Program-made: the position numbers and the translations under genes
Sequence record: PZ386980.1
Origin: a phage
Strand: one strand, 5' to 3'
Length of the DNA: 64,000 nt
Shown here: piece by piece, positions 3,025 through 48,436 of the stretch
Layout of the letters: each line of letters begins with the position of its first letter
Numbering within the stretch: position 1 is the first letter of the stretch
Notes under the pieces: model-generated
What the model saw: only the letters and a program-made list of their open reading frames with translations
Databases searched by the model: none
What the model was told of the DNA's origin: nothing

Positions 3025-3360
3025 TCACTTATAAAGACACGGAATAGCTTTATAGTGACAAGTAACGAATTTTTGTTTAATTTCTTTTGGCTGCTTAAGA
3101 CCCAGAGCTACAAAAGGATGCGGAACATTTCGAATTTGACCAACTGGAAGAGAAGTCAAATCACCAACTTCGCAAAAACCTTCAGGAACATCAGGACCAA
3201 CAGAGTGAACTACACACAGTTCAGGAACTTCACCTTGAACACGTTTACCGATAATAAGTCCTGATTCTGTAACTTCTTCATCACCGGCTTGTGCGGGTTC
3301 AGAAACTAAAATAACATATTCACCGACAGCACGAATTGGTAGCTGTTGTACTTCAGACAT
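3025..3360 (-). CDS. 31: gp31 head-assembly co-chaperonin (GroES-like)
   Basis: 111 aa; [30 protein letters not shown].. matches recalled T4 gp31. Confidence 0.9.
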
Positions 3361-3416
3361 CGTTTTTCCTTTTTGTTAACAGATGAATTAATAATAACAA
3401 ATAATTCTTAAAGCAT

Positions 3417-3725
3417 TTATTTACCAATAAATTGGAGTAAATGCTCAACTTTCATACCATTAACAGAAATCAATTTGTCAATAGAAAAACCTCGCCATGC
3501 ACCAAGTTCAACATCAAATATTGGAATCATGTCAGTAGATTCTTTCCGAGTCGATTCAGTCAATTTACCAGTTTGCATGGTTGGCATAAAGTCTGCGTCA
3601 CGAGTACCTTTCATAGTACGAATAGTACCATCAGACTTTTCAAAAACTACGTTTGAAACACCCATGGACAGTTTAGTTTTCAAAATTTCACGAATTGCTA
3701 CTTTTTGTTCAGTCGTCAGTTTCAT
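3417..3725 (-). CDS. hypothetical protein (102 aa), position of T4 31.1
   Basis: track ORF between gene 31 and cd. Confidence 0.55.
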   Translation of the reverse strand: MKLTTEQKVAIREILKTKLSMGVSNVVFEKSDGTIRTMKGTRDADFMPTMQTGKLTESTRKESTDMIPIFDVELGAWRGFSIDKLISVNGMKVEHLLQFIGK

Positions 3726-3962
3726 TTATTTACCTATCACAGTTTTAATATGAGTTGTTCCACGTTCTTTAAGAGTGGAAAGCAATTTTTGGCATTTTTC
3801 TAAATCAGATTTCCAACTATATGGTCTATCTATACTAGTCCAATCAGTTTTATAATACTGCTTCCATTTAGAGAAAAAATATTTCTTATACTCTACAGCA
3901 AATGAGATGTTCTCGTTAGAATAAGAACTAATTGCTGTGAGCTTTACCAAACGAAATTTCAT
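3726..3962 (-). CDS. hypothetical protein (78 aa), position of T4 31.2
   Basis: track ORF; start overlaps cd stop. Confidence 0.5.
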   Translation of the reverse strand: MKFRLVKLTAISSYSNENISFAVEYKKYFFSKWKQYYKTDWTSIDRPYSWKSDLEKCQKLLSTLKERGTTHIKTVIGK

Positions 3963-4543
3963 TATTCACCACAGAATTCGTTGATATTTTCCCAGTTTAA
4001 CTTATTCAAGTTTTTCTTAGGAACATTAAACACTTCAATACCTGCATTTCGCAGAATATCATCCCAGCCAGGTTTATTTTTATCGTATGTTTCGCAATAA
4101 ACCAGTTTTTTAATACCAGATTGAGCTATCGCTTTTGCACAATCCGGACATGGAGAAAGTGTTACATACATAGTAGCACCTTCAATAGAAGAACCATTTC
4201 GTGCAGCAAACAAAATTGCATTTAGTTCAGCATGAATTTCATTTTTAGACGACCATTCAGAGTGAGCGCTCCGGTGTTCTTTTGCCAAGACAAAACGATC
4301 AGTTGAACCAAATGATACACATTCGGGCTTATGACCTTGGATGATAGTATGTTTAGGTTTATTTAGCAACCAACCTTGCTCAGCAGCATAATCACAACAG
4401 TTCACACCCCCTGCGGGGGAACCATTATACCCAGTAGAAATAATACGTCCATTCTTTTCAATTACTGCTCCTACCTTCCAGGAGCAACATTTTGATTCCT
4501 GCGATACTAAATATGCAATTTGAAGTACTGTACTCGCTTTCAT
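3962..4543 (-). CDS. cd: dCMP deaminase
   Basis: 193 aa; zinc-deaminase motifs HAELNAI and PCPDCAKAI; matches recalled T4 Cd. Confidence 0.9.
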   Translation of the reverse strand: MKASTVLQIAYLVSQESKCCSWKVGAVIEKNGRIISTGYNGSPAGGVNCCDYAAEQGWLLNKPKHTIIQGHKPECVSFGSTDRFVLAKEHRSAHSEWSSKNEIHAELNAILFAARNGSSIEGATMYVTLSPCPDCAKAIAQSGIKKLVYCETYDKNKPGWDDILRNAGIEVFNVPKKNLNKLNWENINEFCGE

Positions 4544-44848: not shown

Positions 44849-45223
44849 TCACTTAAATTTAATGGCTTGAAGGAGACTAATAATTCTCAAACGGCTTCTT
44901 TCATCTTTAACTGTAAAAGAAAGAGGGTCGCCAGATTTCATGGTAATAGTGCATTCAAAATCAAAATCTTCAGTGACTTCTTCGAAGAAGTCAAATTCTT
45001 CATCATAAATTAGAACACTACTTTGCAGACTGTGAAGAGTTTTTCCAGCATTTCTGCTAACTGCTGTACTAATCATTGTAACATTATGACCTTTCATATC
45101 TTCGACGATAAATTCACTAGTCAATATTACAGCATTAATAGAACTATTCCTATTACTAGCAGAAAGTAGAAATTTCTGTTCTTCACCTTCACGAATACGA
45201 TATTTCTTACCAATTTTAAACAT
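44849..45223 (-). CDS. hypothetical protein (124 aa)
   Basis: track ORF. Confidence 0.5.
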   Translation of the reverse strand: MFKIGKKYRIREGEEQKFLLSASNRNSSINAVILTSEFIVEDMKGHNVTMISTAVSRNAGKTLHSLQSSVLIYDEEFDFFEEVTEDFDFECTITMKSGDPLSFTVKDERSRLRIISLLQAIKFK

Positions 45224-45404: not shown

Positions 45405-45830
45405 TTATTCCTTAAAATGTGCTTTCAACATCTGATACAAGGACCATGCCTGTTCATTATTTTCAATAGTAACTTTCATGACTGGAAATTCTGTGAAATC
45501 TTCTATTTGTTCTTGCTCTTTCTCTTCCTGCTCTTGCTCTTCAGCTGCCTGGTATGGATTTTCCACTTCATCAAAGAACACAGCTTCACTCGTTGAAAGC
45601 CAGATAAAATCTTCATCCAAAATATCTTTACCAGAAGATAACGCCAATTTTCCACTAGATGTCACAAGTTTAGTAGGACGACCAAGATAGTCAATATCTG
45701 TAACTCTAAAAGGTTCCATACCAAGACGTCGTGCATAAATTCCGTTTTCAGTATGGTCCTTGATAAAATCTTCTTGAGCTTGTTTATTTTTAAATTGATA
45801 CCATTTATTAACTTCAAATTTAATAGCCAT
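45405..45830 (-). CDS. hypothetical acidic protein (141 aa)
   Basis: track ORF (TTG at 45848) trimmed to ATG 45830 overlapping upstream stop (TAATG). Confidence 0.5.
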
Positions 45831-46058: not shown

Positions 46059-46328
46059 TTAATTGAACAGTGGAGCGATGCGTTTCAGAAGAGTAGCAGC
46101 ACCTTTAGCGAATTTTACATCATGAAAAACAGTTTCTTCTTCCGTTACAACACGAACTTTAATGTTTTCACAATCCCAATTTTTACGAACAATCTTCAAA
46201 AGCTGCAGTAAATCTTTACATTCAGCAATATCGATAACACATCCACGAGAATCTTCCATTATCGCACGATAACCGTAAGCCATACCATAATCGTTGAAAG
46301 ATTGCTCGATGATAATTAAGTTTTCCAT
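46059..46328 (-). CDS. hypothetical protein (89 aa)
   Basis: track ORF (TTG at 46340) trimmed to ATG 46328 with GGAG RBS. Confidence 0.5.
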   Translation of the reverse strand: MENLIIIEQSFNDYGMAYGYRAIMEDSRGCVIDIAECKDLLQLLKIVRKNWDCENIKVRVVTEEETVFHDVKFAKGAATLLKRIAPLFN

Positions 46329-46353
46329 TTTATTCTCCAAGTTATTTTCTGTA

Positions 46354-46394
46354 TCAGTAGTTGATATTGATATAGTACCATAATCAACTACTGA
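46354..46394. repeat. 12-bp perfect inverted repeat flanking a promoter-like -10 element
   Basis: tcagtagttgat (46354-46365) .. 17 nt including atagta .. atcaactactga (46383-46394). Confidence 0.6.
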
Positions 46395-46435
46395 TGTATA
46401 TAGTTTTATGAAAAAATTTTAAACTTTATGCAAAT

Positions 46436-46855
46436 TTATGCTAAAGCTGCTTCGCACCATTTTTTAATTTGGAATTCAGGAACTACCATGAACTGGCCTG
46501 CAAAAACAATATTGTAGAGCTTGACACCATCTTCTACCCAACGGTCCGAAATAAAACCAGCGACTTGATTCGTTGTCCATGGAGTTCCATCTGTTGCCGC
46601 CGCAATTGTGAATTTATGGTCTTTTACAACTAAAACTGAAGAACAAAGTTTCCATTTAAATGCGCTTTCTTCTGGCTCAATGAACTGACTTGAGACATAG
46701 CCAATGTTACCATCAGCGTCACGAACTTTAACCTCGTTACGACCAAAAACTGGATCACTTACAGAAAGAACTTCAACCAGCTTTCCTGCAACTTTAGAAC
46801 GAGAAGCAACGGATACATATACGTAATCACCAGTAGAGAGATTTACAATATTCAT
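46436..46855 (-). CDS. paralog family member 1 (139 aa)
   Basis: shares VSxASRSKxAGxLVEV, FKWxLC and (F/W)(I/V)(S/T)D(R/Q)W(V/L)EDG..L(Y/L)N(I/V)V..G.F motifs with the next two ORFs. Confidence 0.55.
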   Translation of the reverse strand: MNIVNLSTGDYVYVSVASRSKVAGKLVEVLSVSDPVFGRNEVKVRDADGNIGYVSSQFIEPEESAFKWKLCSSVLVVKDHKFTIAAATDGTPWTTNQVAGFISDRWVEDGVKLYNIVFAGQFMVVPEFQIKKWCEAALA

Positions 46856-46864
46856 AATAATTCC

Positions 46865-47338
46865 TTAAGCTTTACGAGGAGAAGCATAACGAGTGATTTC
46901 AGATTCTTCAACAACCCGGAAGTCACCTAAGAATACGATATTGTAGAGCTTTTCACCATCTTCAACCCATTGGTCTGTGATGAAGCCACACATCCTATCA
47001 GTTTTACTTGGACCAGCGAAATCATCAATATAATCGAATTCTTCATCAGTTACAAATTCAACGCCTTTACACAACGCCCATTTAAATTGTGCATTAGACT
47101 CAGTGGATTCAACTTCTTCAACAGAAGTAAAATGAGAGCTAACACGAGTTTCCAGAAATTTAGGACTTACGTAAGCGTACTGAGTTTCAGTTTTTCCAGA
47201 ACTAGGAATGATTCGAACTTTAACTTCTTTAACACGACCAGTACCATTAGTACGAAGTCCTACCACTTCAACTAGACGACCTGCAGCTTTAGAACGAGAT
47301 GCAGACGATACACGCTTAATTTCACCGATAGTAATCAT
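46865..47338 (-). CDS. paralog family member 2 (157 aa)
   Basis: see family motifs above. Confidence 0.55.
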   Translation of the reverse strand: MITIGEIKRVSSASRSKAAGRLVEVVGLRTNGTGRVKEVKVRIIPSSGKTETQYAYVSPKFLETRVSSHFTSVEEVESTESNAQFKWALCKGVEFVTDEEFDYIDDFAGPSKTDRMCGFITDQWVEDGEKLYNIVFLGDFRVVEESEITRYASPRKA

Positions 47339-47410
47339 AATTTTTCTCTCTTTGTTGTTAAGATTTATTCTCCATGAGAGCCATTATAACAGGCTCTCTA
47401 TAAAGTAAAC

Positions 47411-47920
47411 TTAATTAAGGATATTAATTACTGCACTGCGTGGAACTACACTAAAATCACCTGCATGAACAACGTTCAGAAGTTCAACACCATCTTCAAG
47501 CCACTGGTCAGTTACCCAACCACTTACTGGACCAGCAAATGGTCGACGAATTGAAACAGCTTTACACAACAAGTCAGTAGGCTCGATAGGCTTAACCAGA
47601 GTACCGTACATACAAGCAATGTCCATATCAAAGTGGAGACCAGTGCTAACAGGTGCTTCTTCAATCAACAATTCGAAATCTTGTTCTGTAATATAGACCG
47701 TAGATATTGTACCATATAAGTTTTTAATTCTTAAGAATGATACAGATGAAGCTGTGGCAGTTGATGCAAAAATAGGACCAGCATTTACAATAGTGAAACC
47801 TTTACCTTGGGTAACACCAATAAGCTCGCAAAACTTACTATAAGAACCATTATTTGCTTCAAACCAGTTTACTTGCTTTTCGTCTTTCAGGATGTAAGTA
47901 GCTGTAGTACTGATATTCAT
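47411..47920 (-). CDS. paralog family member 3 (169 aa, C-terminal motif only)
   Basis: C-terminus WVTDQWLEDGVELLNVVHAGDFSVVP matches the family motif. Confidence 0.55.
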   Translation of the reverse strand: MNISTTATYILKDEKQVNWFEANNGSYSKFCELIGVTQGKGFTIVNAGPIFASTATASSVSFLRIKNLYGTISTVYITEQDFELLIEEAPVSTGLHFDMDIACMYGTLVKPIEPTDLLCKAVSIRRPFAGPVSGWVTDQWLEDGVELLNVVHAGDFSVVPRSAVINILN

Positions 47921-47932
47921 GATGTTTTCCCC

Positions 47933-48436
47933 TTAATCTAAGGTAATAAAGCCTTTTAATTCGGCATGTGACTTGCGGAACATTACTTGATGACCGCCAA
48001 TGATAACTTGGTCATCAGGTACTTCGTATACAGCGAGATAAAATCCTTTAGAAGCTAATTCTTCGCGCTCTTCTCGTGTGAACCATCTCATCATATCATA
48101 TTCGCTAGCGAAAGCAAAATGATAAAGAGCTATAAACCATCCTGGAATATAGTGATCTACGCCTACATATTCTTCTTTCTCAAAATTAGTATTAATTGCT
48201 ATATTAGCATTTTTAACTAATAATTTGTCTTCATGCGGCACAGGAATTCTTTTATTATCATTACTATGATGCATAAAATTGGGTCTGTCATAACCTACGC
48301 GTAATAACCACTCTTCGCTCCATGAATCTATTATACTCCTGTATGGCGTTATTTGAACACAAAGATCTCGACGTATTGTTATAGCATCTTCATAATTAAG
48401 AATACTAAATGATGATTCAACACGATAAATTTTCAT
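47933..48436 (-). CDS. hypothetical protein (167 aa), position of T4 motB
   Basis: track ORF trimmed to ATG 48436 with GAGGA RBS; promoter 48464-48493 upstream. Confidence 0.5.
   Translation of the reverse strand: MKIYRVESSFSILNYEDAITIRRDLCVQITPYRSIIDSWSEEWLLRVGYDRPNFMHHSNDNKRIPVPHEDKLLVKNANIAINTNFEKEEYVGVDHYIPGWFIALYHFAFASEYDMMRWFTREEREELASKGFYLAVYEVPDDQVIIGGHQVMFRKSHAELKGFITLD

Follow-up and report, generated by a model that had tools for sequence, protein, structure and literature searches.

Three tandem genes of a T4-type early region as the motB locus: motB.1 and motB with an additional, shortened motB copy

Three consecutive open reading frames (ORFs) on the minus strand of a phage genome, at positions 46436-47920 of the window (the whole 64,000-nucleotide stretch of record PZ386980.1 analysed in the present study), raise the question of which genes they are and what the domain common to their products might do. 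The initial annotation described them as tandem paralogs of 139, 157 and 169 aa with unknown function that it could not assign to a named T4 gene. The ORF listing returned the three frames exactly as described, and their DNA is 100% identical to that of phage RB51/RB68 across 4.7 kb. In the GenBank record of RB51 the genes already have names: the 157-aa ORF is motB, the 169-aa ORF is motB.1, and the 139-aa ORF is RB51ORF010, a known second motB copy labelled 'similar to motB and RB32ORF010c'. The initial annotation had also taken a single conserved known function among orthologs as evidence against its reading, and for motB such a function was essentially found. We are therefore highly confident that the three ORFs constitute the motB locus of a Tequatrovirus, in which motB.1 and motB are joined by a shortened extra copy of motB, of the type represented by RB69 ORF010c. 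This confidence covers gene and family identity; the division of labour between domains and copies outlined below is tentative and may well be wrong. The genes and domains, all on the minus strand, are as follows.

46436..46855, minus: second motB copy, 139 aa (RB51ORF010; ortholog of RB69 ORF010c), from ORF, annotation and Pfam/PHROG
46670..46855, minus: KOW/SH3-like N-terminal barrel of the 139-aa copy (aa 1-62)
46436..46669, minus: MotB-type C-terminal barrel of the 139-aa copy (aa 63-139), the linker being almost absent
46862..46866, minus: AAGGA ribosome-binding site of the 139-aa gene, overlapping the motB stop codon, from the sequence
46865..47338, minus: motB, 157 aa, RB69-type allele, from RB51 annotation and Pfam/PHROG
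47141..47338, minus: basic KOW-like N-terminal domain of MotB (aa 1-66)
47090..47140, minus: acidic linker of MotB (aa 67-83)
46865..47089, minus: C-terminal barrel of MotB (aa 84-157)
47411..47920, minus: motB.1, 169 aa, intact full-length form, from annotation, PHROG and Pfam
47657..47920, minus: LSm-like/GoF-like N-terminal barrel of MotB.1 (aa 1-88)
47585..47656, minus: disordered linker of MotB.1 bearing the DMDIACMYGTLVKP motif (aa 89-112)
47411..47584, minus: MotB-type C-terminal barrel of MotB.1 (aa 113-169)

The locus is located in a T4-type early region, with gene 39 on one side and dexA/dda on the other, and the gene order in the window/RB51, T4 and RB69 places motB-family genes between cef and dexA of Tevenvirinae. 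The order is shared with T4 (motB, motB.1, motB.2, dexA) and with RB69. In the window, the neighbour of the 139-aa gene is a small gene, ORF009, of 89 aa as annotated and 93 aa from a TTG start. The paralogy and annotation of motB and motB.1 are already known, and the founding member has been biochemically characterised; Patterson-West et al. 2021 (PMC7827196) described the C-terminal domain common to MotB and MotB.1 as well as second copies of motB, for instance in RB69, and Kim et al. 2025 (PMC12152347) described the LSm-like N-terminal domain of MotB.1.

The homology of the three proteins was confirmed at two levels. First, BLASTP aligned the 139-aa and 157-aa proteins over their full length (E=1e-29, 40% identity), and only the last ~30-42 residues of the 169-aa protein were aligned with the 157-aa (E=2e-11) and 139-aa (E=1e-10) proteins. 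Second, all three exceed the gathering cut-off of 25 bits for Pfam PF17613 (motB), with 72.1, 141.2 and 33.7 bits for the 139-, 157- and 169-aa proteins, the last covering only profile positions 85-153. Thus, the 139-aa and 157-aa proteins are full-length paralogs, and the 169-aa protein shares the C-terminal domain only. Every motif quoted in the initial annotation is present in the translated ORFs: VSVASRSKVAGKLVEV / VSSASRSKAAGRLVEV and AFKWKLC / QFKWALC in the 139-aa and 157-aa proteins, and FISDRWVEDGVKLYNIVFAGQFMVVP / FITDQWVEDGEKLYNIVFLGDFRVVE / WVTDQWLEDGVELLNVVHAGDFSVVP as a block common to all three. The common domain is a beta-barrel of ~55-75 residues corresponding to the C-terminal half of PF17613, with the core D-Q-W-V/I-E-D-G-x-x-L-x-N-V-V and, in an alignment of 16 C-terminal sequences, the invariant columns D-x-W-x-E-x-G-x-x-L-x-N-x-V...G...V. 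In a profile search of 1.84 billion representatives, the domain lay at the C-terminus or close to it in all family-sized matches (43-251 aa); four longer proteins were matched by short repeated stretches only and are probably spurious. The barrels fused ahead of this domain are KOW/SH3-like, with the motif V-S-x-x-S-R-S-K-x-A-G-x-L-V-E-V that characterises the MotB family, in MotB and the 139-aa copy, and LSm-like of the GoF type in MotB.1. No homology beyond MotB/MotB.1 was detected in Pfam, PHROGs, NCBIfam, PDB sequences or a viral structure library: the NCBIfam profile search returned zero matches, the C-terminal-domain profile hit nothing significant among PDB sequences, so that no solved structure was identified, and the significant matches in the viral structure library were MotB/MotB.1 relatives only.

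The 157-aa protein matches the PF17613 HMM end to end (3.5e-41) and phrog_1671 at 2.7e-68. T4 MotB (NP_049626, 162 aa; PF17613) is likewise encoded between cef and motB.1 and has the same arrangement, in which a basic KOW-like N-terminal domain with SRSKAAG-LVEV is joined through a linker to a C-terminal barrel bearing FKW and TDQWVEDGVKLYN. The MotB of the window is nevertheless of the RB69-type allele, with 84.7% identity to RB69 MotB and only 46.5% to T4 MotB despite 92-100% identity of the flanking genes, and the window has a second motB copy, which T4 lacks. Several properties of T4 MotB have been reported. The protein is abundant, early and non-essential, binds tightly and without sequence specificity to both modified phage DNA and the DNA of the host, and is purified on DNA together with H-NS/StpA; its overproduction is toxic, and it increases burst size ~2-fold (PMC6070864). 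It remodels complexes of DNA with H-NS, a xenogeneic silencer, so that the H-NS footprint is altered, and it relieves repression in part of the H-NS regulon; 75 host genes are up-regulated, about a third of which belong to this regulon (PMC7827196). T7 gp5.5 and T4 Arn have the same broad purpose as that proposed for MotB, namely relieving or altering H-NS early in infection, but show no sequence or fold relation to MotB and bind H-NS itself, whereas MotB is found with H-NS only when DNA is present (PMC7827196).

Which domain contacts DNA was addressed through charge. Whole-protein charge was dropped as an argument for DNA binding because it is determined mainly by acidic linkers, which vary in length, and per-domain charges were used instead. 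In the 157-aa MotB these are +8 for the N-terminal domain (+7/+8), -4 for the linker and -7 for the C-terminal domain. The N-terminal domain carries +2 to +7 in 21/21 MotB-type and hybrid sequences examined, compared with about -1 (-1/-2) in the 139-aa copy and -2 to 0 across the 139-aa subfamily; within the three-gene family, a basic N-terminal domain is found in MotB proper only. Across the family, C-terminal domains carry charges between -7 and +3. These comparisons suggest, indirectly, that the 157-aa MotB acts like T4 MotB, with the conserved basic N-terminal barrel contacting DNA. MotB reportedly also compacts DNA (Son et al., NAR 2021). Since the window protein has only 46.5% identity to T4 MotB and is acidic overall (pI 5.4 vs 9.2), that RB51 MotB coats DNA equally well is an assumption.

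The 169-aa MotB.1 matches phrog_2333 at 6.7e-77 and Pfam motB at 4.1e-8 across aa 96-164. The AF2 model (pLDDT 77.5) predicts strands at 8-11, 42-49, 60-66, 72-78 and 85-88, a helix at 26-37, and a linker at 92-113 with values <50, consistent with disorder. This architecture is that of the LSm-like GoF/MotB.1/Frd.2 fold, a bent five-stranded antiparallel sheet of ~80-90 residues followed by a flexible linker and a variable C-terminal domain, and the N-terminal domain is related to GoF-like proteins (Kim et al. 2025; PMC12152347). A GoF-like 124-aa ORF of the window is also matched by phrog_2333. T4 MotB.1 (P39415 / NP_049627) is similarly encoded upstream of motB and belongs to PHROG 2333, with the same type of N-terminal barrel and the same C-terminal motif, but is only 46% identical to the 169-aa protein of the window, which has an inserted disordered linker of 24 residues with DMDIACMYGTLVKP. 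The two also differ at the C-terminus, complete in the window protein and incomplete in the 119-aa T4 reference (13.8 kDa) because of a one-base frameshift, a single extra G. This G does not occur in another T4 assembly, nor in a 143-aa (16.2 kDa) form of the protein found on 256 contigs.

One alternative explanation is that all three proteins bind nucleic acid through a common OB-fold C-terminal domain, with the N-terminal barrels tuning specificity, so that MotB and the 139-aa copy act on DNA and MotB.1 on RNA, each independently. HHpred relates the C-terminal domain of MotB to cold-shock/OB-fold proteins and eIF5A, and the domain could itself bind DNA (PMC7827196); moreover, it is the most conserved part of the family, and RNA binding is frequent among LSm-like folds (PMC12152347). 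However, a domain charge between -7 and +3, with an invariant core D-Q-W-V-E-D-G that is acidic, argues against a nucleic acid-binding surface, MotB.1 is acidic throughout (pI 4.7, net charge -7), and MotB.1 had no effect on reporter RNA (Kim et al. 2025; PMC12152347). We consider this explanation possible, if doubtful.

The initial annotation regarded the genes as diversifying paralogs typical of host-targeting or anti-defence factors; on the full form of this view, each copy would counter a different fast-evolving host factor under positive selection. The locus is indeed a set of tandem paralogs in an early, non-essential, hyperplastic region of T4 type, encoding a host-takeover factor, MotB (PMC6070864, PMC7827196), which acts on a process of the xenogeneic silencer H-NS (PMC7827196). 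In addition, N-terminal modules are swapped between family members, and motB.1 varies far more than any other gene in the block, with 74% or 47% identity where the flanking genes show 97-100%. Pairwise Nei-Gojobori comparisons with orthologs nevertheless yielded dN/dS values of 0.14 for the 139-aa gene, about 0.2 for motB and about 0.3 for motB.1, so that every gene is under purifying selection rather than diversifying, although these gene- and domain-wide values leave room for positive selection at a few sites. The values were 0.02-0.2 for the common C-terminal domain; in MotB.1 they were 0.02-0.13 for this domain and 0.3-0.5 for the N-terminal domain. No structured domain exceeded 0.5, and only the short linker of MotB approached or passed 1. 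The motB.1 alleles also differ strongly at synonymous sites (dS 0.6-1.3) and are therefore old lineages exchanged by recombination and not fast-evolving copies; the diversity stems from N-terminal module swaps and whole-allele exchange. Furthermore, deletion of T4 motB.1 gave no laboratory phenotype (PMC12152347), and a search of the literature turned up no account of MotB-family proteins triggering or blocking a defence system. Thus, the host-takeover part of the earlier suggestion stands, a strict anti-defence role is unsupported, and we regard the explanation by positively selected anti-defence paralogs as quite unlikely.

The 139-aa gene has no T4 counterpart. Its product matches Pfam motB (6.4e-20) and phrog_1671 (9.8e-51) and resembles RB69 ORF010c (RB69p010; NP_861700, 139 aa) in length, sequence (87% identity) and position immediately downstream of motB; RB69 differs in belonging to the genus Mosigvirus and in having motB.2 as the neighbour on the other side, where the window has ORF009. 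That the gene is a redundant, decaying motB duplicate with no function of its own is very improbable, since its absence from T4, T2 and ~73% of MotB-encoding phage records, its loss relative to motB of a 6-residue loop, a linker of ~16-20 residues and the basic N-terminal residues, and the merging of the pair into one gene in natural hybrids are outweighed by its intact state and constant length of 139 aa in 208 phage records of two genera (at >=80% identity), by a dN/dS of 0.14 at dS 0.55-0.66 to Mosigvirus orthologs (0.03-0.15 in the N-terminal domain), by its own ribosome-binding site, and by a confident AF2 model (pLDDT 83.7) with two beta domains. The hybrids, in which the tandem pair can collapse into a single gene, were also considered as assembly chimeras; P0028 occurs on 5 contigs, one of them of 19 kb, that come from three or more samples, and the hybrids look real, with P0028 and P0029 each being the sole MotB-type gene at the expected place. 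RB69-type MotB was found in 202 records at >=60% identity, and among the matches listed, every record with the 139-aa gene or RB69-type MotB shows two MotB-like places. The 139-aa copy and the RB69-type allele of motB therefore seem to move as a cassette of two genes.

The cassette would also be a transcriptional unit. The distance from the motB stop to the 139-aa start is 9 nt, and the ribosome-binding site of the second gene lies over the motB stop codon, indicating that both genes are read from one transcript. Three elements, recognised at the nucleotide level, flank the pair.

47383..47410, minus: T4-early-promoter-like element directly upstream of motB, GTTTAC (47410-47405) ... TATAAT (47388-47383), found by eye and by T4 alignment
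47376..47398, minus: 7-bp G+C-rich hairpin GAGAGCC / GGCTCTC over the -10 element, in the motB.1-motB gap
46353..46395, minus: inverted repeat with perfectly matching arms of 13 bp (ATCAGTAGTTGAT ... ATCAACTACTGAT), within the 95-nt intergenic stretch that follows the 139-aa gene

The promoter assignment is tentative: the element aligns with its T4 motB counterpart with a spacer 2 nt shorter, and a generic sigma-70 scan gave nothing above shuffled expectation and left the element uncalled. The motB.1-motB intergenic RNA has a predicted fold of -19.2 kcal/mol (z = -3.7), and T4 has another hairpin (GGGACC / GGTCCC) at the same site. The inverted repeat folds at -23.1 kcal/mol (z = -4.2; 0/200 shuffles as stable) and could be where the transcript of motB and the 139-aa gene ends or is processed; a terminator scan found no T-run terminator. 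An Rfam match to Zeta-pan (E 0.53, under a permissive E-value) was at chance level and was rejected.

Herein, we propose a tentative division of labour for the motB locus. First, with DNA contacted by the basic N-terminal barrel of MotB, the common C-terminal barrel would more likely serve in docking or association than as the principal surface for DNA binding, because its charge is neutral to acidic and it is under the strongest purifying selection. Second, the 139-aa copy, which shares its transcript with motB and is always found alongside the RB69-type allele, has lost both the linker and the basic charge of the N-terminal domain; it would therefore more likely act with MotB, as a partner or modulator, than coat DNA itself. 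Third, MotB.1 would carry the same C-terminal barrel behind an LSm-like module. Against association of this kind, AlphaFold3 gave no confident MotB.1 homomultimers (Kim et al. 2025; PMC12152347). In its most extended form, this proposal describes the locus as a small combinatorial system, in which the C-terminal barrel is a common docking or hetero-association module that does not bind DNA, interchangeable N-terminal barrels (basic KOW-like for DNA, charge-neutral KOW-like, and LSm-like) are brought to a shared target or to each other, and the RB69-type motB and the 139-aa gene form an obligate cassette equivalent to a single, more basic T4-type motB. As a whole, this extended form is unlikely to be correct.

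Several consequences follow for the MotB family. The T4 reference for motB.1, and possibly constructs based on it, is without the last two thirds of the conserved C-terminal domain. The results suggest that the basic N-terminal barrel, rather than the common C-terminal domain, is the DNA-contacting part of MotB. Moreover, the 139-aa copy is a conserved and selected gene tied to one motB allele, and might therefore provide a handle on the role of the common C-terminal domain.

In the present study, the three consecutive minus-strand open reading frames (ORFs) of 139, 157 and 169 aa described in the initial annotation were found in the ORF listing, and every shared motif quoted there was found in the proteins:

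46436-46855, minus strand: second motB copy (RB51ORF010), 139 aa
46865-47338, minus strand: motB, 157 aa
47411-47920, minus strand: motB.1, 169 aa

The similarity that had suggested tandem paralogs is statistically solid in pairwise alignment (BLASTP): a full-length alignment of the 139- and 157-aa proteins gives 40% identity (E = 1e-29), and the 169-aa protein matches the 157- and 139-aa proteins only over the last ~30-42 residues, with 50-57% identity (E = 2e-11 and 1e-10). Because of this difference in span, the set comprises two full-length paralogs and a third protein sharing one domain. All three proteins score above the curated cut-off of Pfam PF17613 "motB, modifier of transcription". 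Among the PHROGs, phrog_1671 "MotB-like transcriptional regulator" takes in the 139- and 157-aa proteins, and the 169-aa protein belongs to phrog_2333, its C-terminus giving a secondary match to phrog_1671. Moreover, phages RB51 and RB68 (genus Tequatrovirus) are 100% identical to the 4.7-kb stretch around the three genes, which are labelled in GenBank/RefSeq as RB51ORF010 "similar to motB and RB32ORF010c", motB and motB.1. Thus, the view that none could be assigned to a named T4 gene was mistaken for motB and motB.1, and the third gene is a known extra copy. The motB block is already known as an annotated and partly characterised gene family, and the paralogy of the three genes has been published.

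The block lies in the classical T4 early region, in the order gene 39, 39.1, 39.2, goF, cef, motB block, motB.2, dexA and dda, in agreement with the proposed early host-takeover context, as is the action of T4 MotB on the H-NS regulon. Son and colleagues are said to have described, in 2021, DNA compaction and the de-repression of H-NS silencing by MotB. DNA binding by T4 MotB is tight, shows no sequence specificity and extends to both unmodified and glucosyl-hydroxymethylated DNA; the protein co-purifies with both H-NS and StpA and increases burst size ~2-fold (Patterson-West et al. 2018, PMC6070864). In later work (Patterson-West et al. 2021, PMC7827196), MotB changed the DNase I footprint of H-NS and raised the expression of 75 host genes, of which about one third belong to the H-NS regulon; two motB copies were noted in some phages, e.g. 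RB69. For MotB.1, the N-terminal domain is an LSm-like barrel common to GoF and Frd.2, and deletion of T4 motB.1 gave no laboratory phenotype (Kim et al. 2025, PMC12152347).

Sharp jumps in identity from gene to gene have been observed across the locus. The flanking genes are T4-like (cef, 97% to T4 and 65% to RB69; motB.2, 92% and 35%; dexA, 100% and 68%), whereas MotB shows 46.5% identity to T4 and 84.7% to RB69, and the 139-aa protein is 87% identical to that of RB69 and has no counterpart in T4. T4 carries motB and motB.1; in RB69 (genus Mosigvirus), the 139-aa ortholog lies directly downstream of motB. Because the pair is RB69-like within T4-like flanks, the RB69-type motB and the 139-aa gene appear to behave as a cassette exchanged between genera. 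In the phage collection, the 139-aa gene was found in 208 records at no less than 80% identity and RB69-type MotB in 202 records at no less than 60% identity; every one of the records listed with either has two MotB-like places, whereas records with T4-type MotB have one. The most variable gene is motB.1, with 99-100% identity in only 6 records, 74% in Sf24, CAM-21 and like phages, and 47% in RB3, while the neighbour genes of these phages remain at 97-100%.

Gene order differs as well. In Mosigvirus the order is cef, motB.2, 139-aa gene, motB, motB.1 and dexA (motB.2 at 3350-3874 of locus L004, from RB69 NC_004928, and 3480-4004 of database locus L011), and in Tequatrovirus motB, motB.1, motB.2 (window 47933-48436) and dexA follow cef and intervening genes. 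Since motB.2 switches sides and its Mosigvirus protein is only 35% identical to that of the window, the block has been rearranged as well as exchanged. Natural hybrid genes were also found: in P0028, the N-terminal domain and linker of a T4-type MotB precede the C-terminal domain of the 139-aa gene, and in P0029 the same C-terminal domain follows an RB69-type N-terminal domain. These hybrids (loci L015, 1373-1894; L016, 3001-3492; L017, 2199-2690; L018, 37-528) are each the sole MotB-type gene at the locus, P0028 being carried by 5 contigs that come from at least 3 independent samples, and are what unequal recombination between tandem copies would be expected to produce.

Two further features of this region were observed. 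The small gene RB51ORF009 (46059-46328, minus strand; phrog_3720) encodes 89 aa in the annotation, or 93 aa if read from a TTG start. It sits between cef and the 139-aa gene, is conserved at 98-100% in RB51-like phages and adjoins the hybrid gene in L018 too; neither T4 nor RB69 has a counterpart. The same region holds another paralog pair, comprising a 124-aa ORF of the RB32ORF005c type, absent from T4 (44849-45223, minus strand), and goF (45405-45830, minus strand). Both match GoF-like PHROGs (phrog_622, 6e-30 and 6e-40), and the 124-aa ORF also matches the MotB.1 family phrog_2333 weakly (1.7e-4), which fits the LSm-like-fold family described by Kim et al. 2025 (PMC12152347).

The paralogs had been described as diversifying. 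dN and dS were estimated by the Nei-Gojobori method for the window genes against orthologs from 12 related loci in 11 other phages, T4 being represented by two records. The dN/dS was about 0.14 for the 139-aa gene against Mosigvirus orthologs (N-terminal domain 0.03-0.15, C-terminal domain 0.12-0.21), about 0.2 for motB against RB69-type orthologs (linker 0.3-1.2, close to neutral), and about 0.3 for motB.1 against several alleles (N-terminal domain 0.3-0.5, C-terminal domain 0.02-0.13). As gene- and domain-wide averages rather than site-level values, these results show that all structured domains are under purifying selection, which is strongest in MotB.1, on its shared C-terminal domain, and positive selection is not supported at this level. 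With a dS of ~1.3 between them, the 139-aa gene and motB are an old pair of full-length paralogs.

AlphaFold2, run on family alignments, produced a confident model of the 139-aa protein (pLDDT 83.7), in which a very short connection joins two beta-barrel domains, and a model of MotB.1 (pLDDT 77.5) with these parts:

aa 1-88: N-terminal barrel with helix
aa 92-113: disordered linker
aa 121-168: five-stranded C-terminal barrel

The C-terminal domain is the only part common to the two models, a hint that it may be an SH3/Tudor-like small barrel, with an OB fold as the alternative. No solved structure matched the C-terminal-domain profile by sequence, and Foldseek against viral structures returned nothing beyond MotB/MotB.1 relatives. 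Only 32 of 1.84 billion cluster representatives matched the profile; in the family-sized hits the domain sits at or near the C-terminus, and four long proteins are probably spurious matches, made only through short repeated stretches. The family is narrow, every named hit being from a T4-like phage. In alignments of database relatives, the one C-terminal barrel follows a KOW-like barrel, an LSm/GoF-like barrel, or a pair of tandem barrels (about 250 aa). The motif D-x-D-[IV]-A-[CS]-M-Y-[GL]-T-[LP]-x-x-P, which may be a short docking motif, is found repeatedly in the family (P0132-P0189, P0229-P0239) in disordered linkers, at N-termini or before N-terminal barrels, its position differing between architectures. 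The MotB.1 version in the window, DMDIACMYGTLVKP, lies in the disordered linker (aa 89-112; nt 47585-47656, minus strand).

In the T4 reference genome NC_000866 (3292-3651 of L003, minus strand, plus ~90 nt downstream), one extra G in motB.1 (GGATTGGAAGATGG versus GGATTGAAGATGG) cuts the product to 119 aa ("13.8 kDa"), the form quoted in published work, and leaves the remaining conserved C-terminal domain (LEDGVELLNVVHAGEYSVVPRSAVVAILN) in another frame. The gene is uninterrupted in T4 assembly OZ209057 (1498-1929 of L014), and an uninterrupted 143-aa form (P0119) occurs on 256 contigs. In RB69 (4877-5373 of L004, from NC_004928, minus strand), two one-base differences, which may be sequencing error or real mutation, split the gene into adjacent 132-aa and 29-aa ORFs. 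These are pieces of one full-length motB.1; the 29-aa RB69p012 was treated as a separate "Category 3" peptide by Patterson-West et al. 2021 (PMC7827196).

From sequence and folding, the following putative transcription signals were identified:

47410-47383, minus strand: promoter-like element GTTTAC-16 nt-TATAAT between motB.1 and motB
47376-47398, minus strand: stable hairpin upstream of motB, its 7-bp G+C-rich stem covering the -10 element (z = -3.7)
46353-46395, minus strand: stable hairpin following the 139-aa gene, with a perfect 13-bp stem (z = -4.2)
upstream of motB.2: sigma-70-like site TTTACT-17-TATTAT with TG, better than the motB.1-motB element

T4 has an aligned promoter-like element at the same place, the window spacer being 2 nt shorter, and a G+C-rich hairpin likewise over the -10 region with a different stem (GGGACC/GGTCCC). 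Both intergenic hairpins are without a T-run and are candidates for 3'-end stabilisation, processing or promoter occlusion.

Herein, we propose a mechanism based on the charge of each domain. Across 21 MotB-type and hybrid sequences, the N-terminal domain is basic (+2 to +7), with window MotB at +7 or +8 depending on the domain boundary, and the linker carries negative charge (-1 to -12). Values for the shared C-terminal domain run from -7 to +3, and its invariant core (D-Q-W-V-E-D-G) is acidic. In the 139-aa subfamily, the N-terminal positive charge is lost (-2 to 0) and almost no linker is left; MotB.1 is acidic in all its parts (net -7, pI 4.7). Because of this pattern, MotB would contact DNA mainly through its basic KOW-like barrel, the C-terminal barrel would be a common association or docking module, and the 139-aa protein would be a partner or modulator of MotB and not a second DNA coat. 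Since 9 nt separate the motB stop from the start of the 139-aa gene, whose AAGGA ribosome-binding site overlaps that stop, the 139-aa product is made from the motB transcript. The 157-aa MotB is assumed to act as in T4, coating host and phage DNA early and remodelling H-NS-DNA complexes, although it has only 46.5% identity to the T4 protein studied. The shared C-terminal domain might serve as a docking module and the RB69-type motB and 139-aa gene might act as a functional pair, a combined proposal that we consider rather unlikely.
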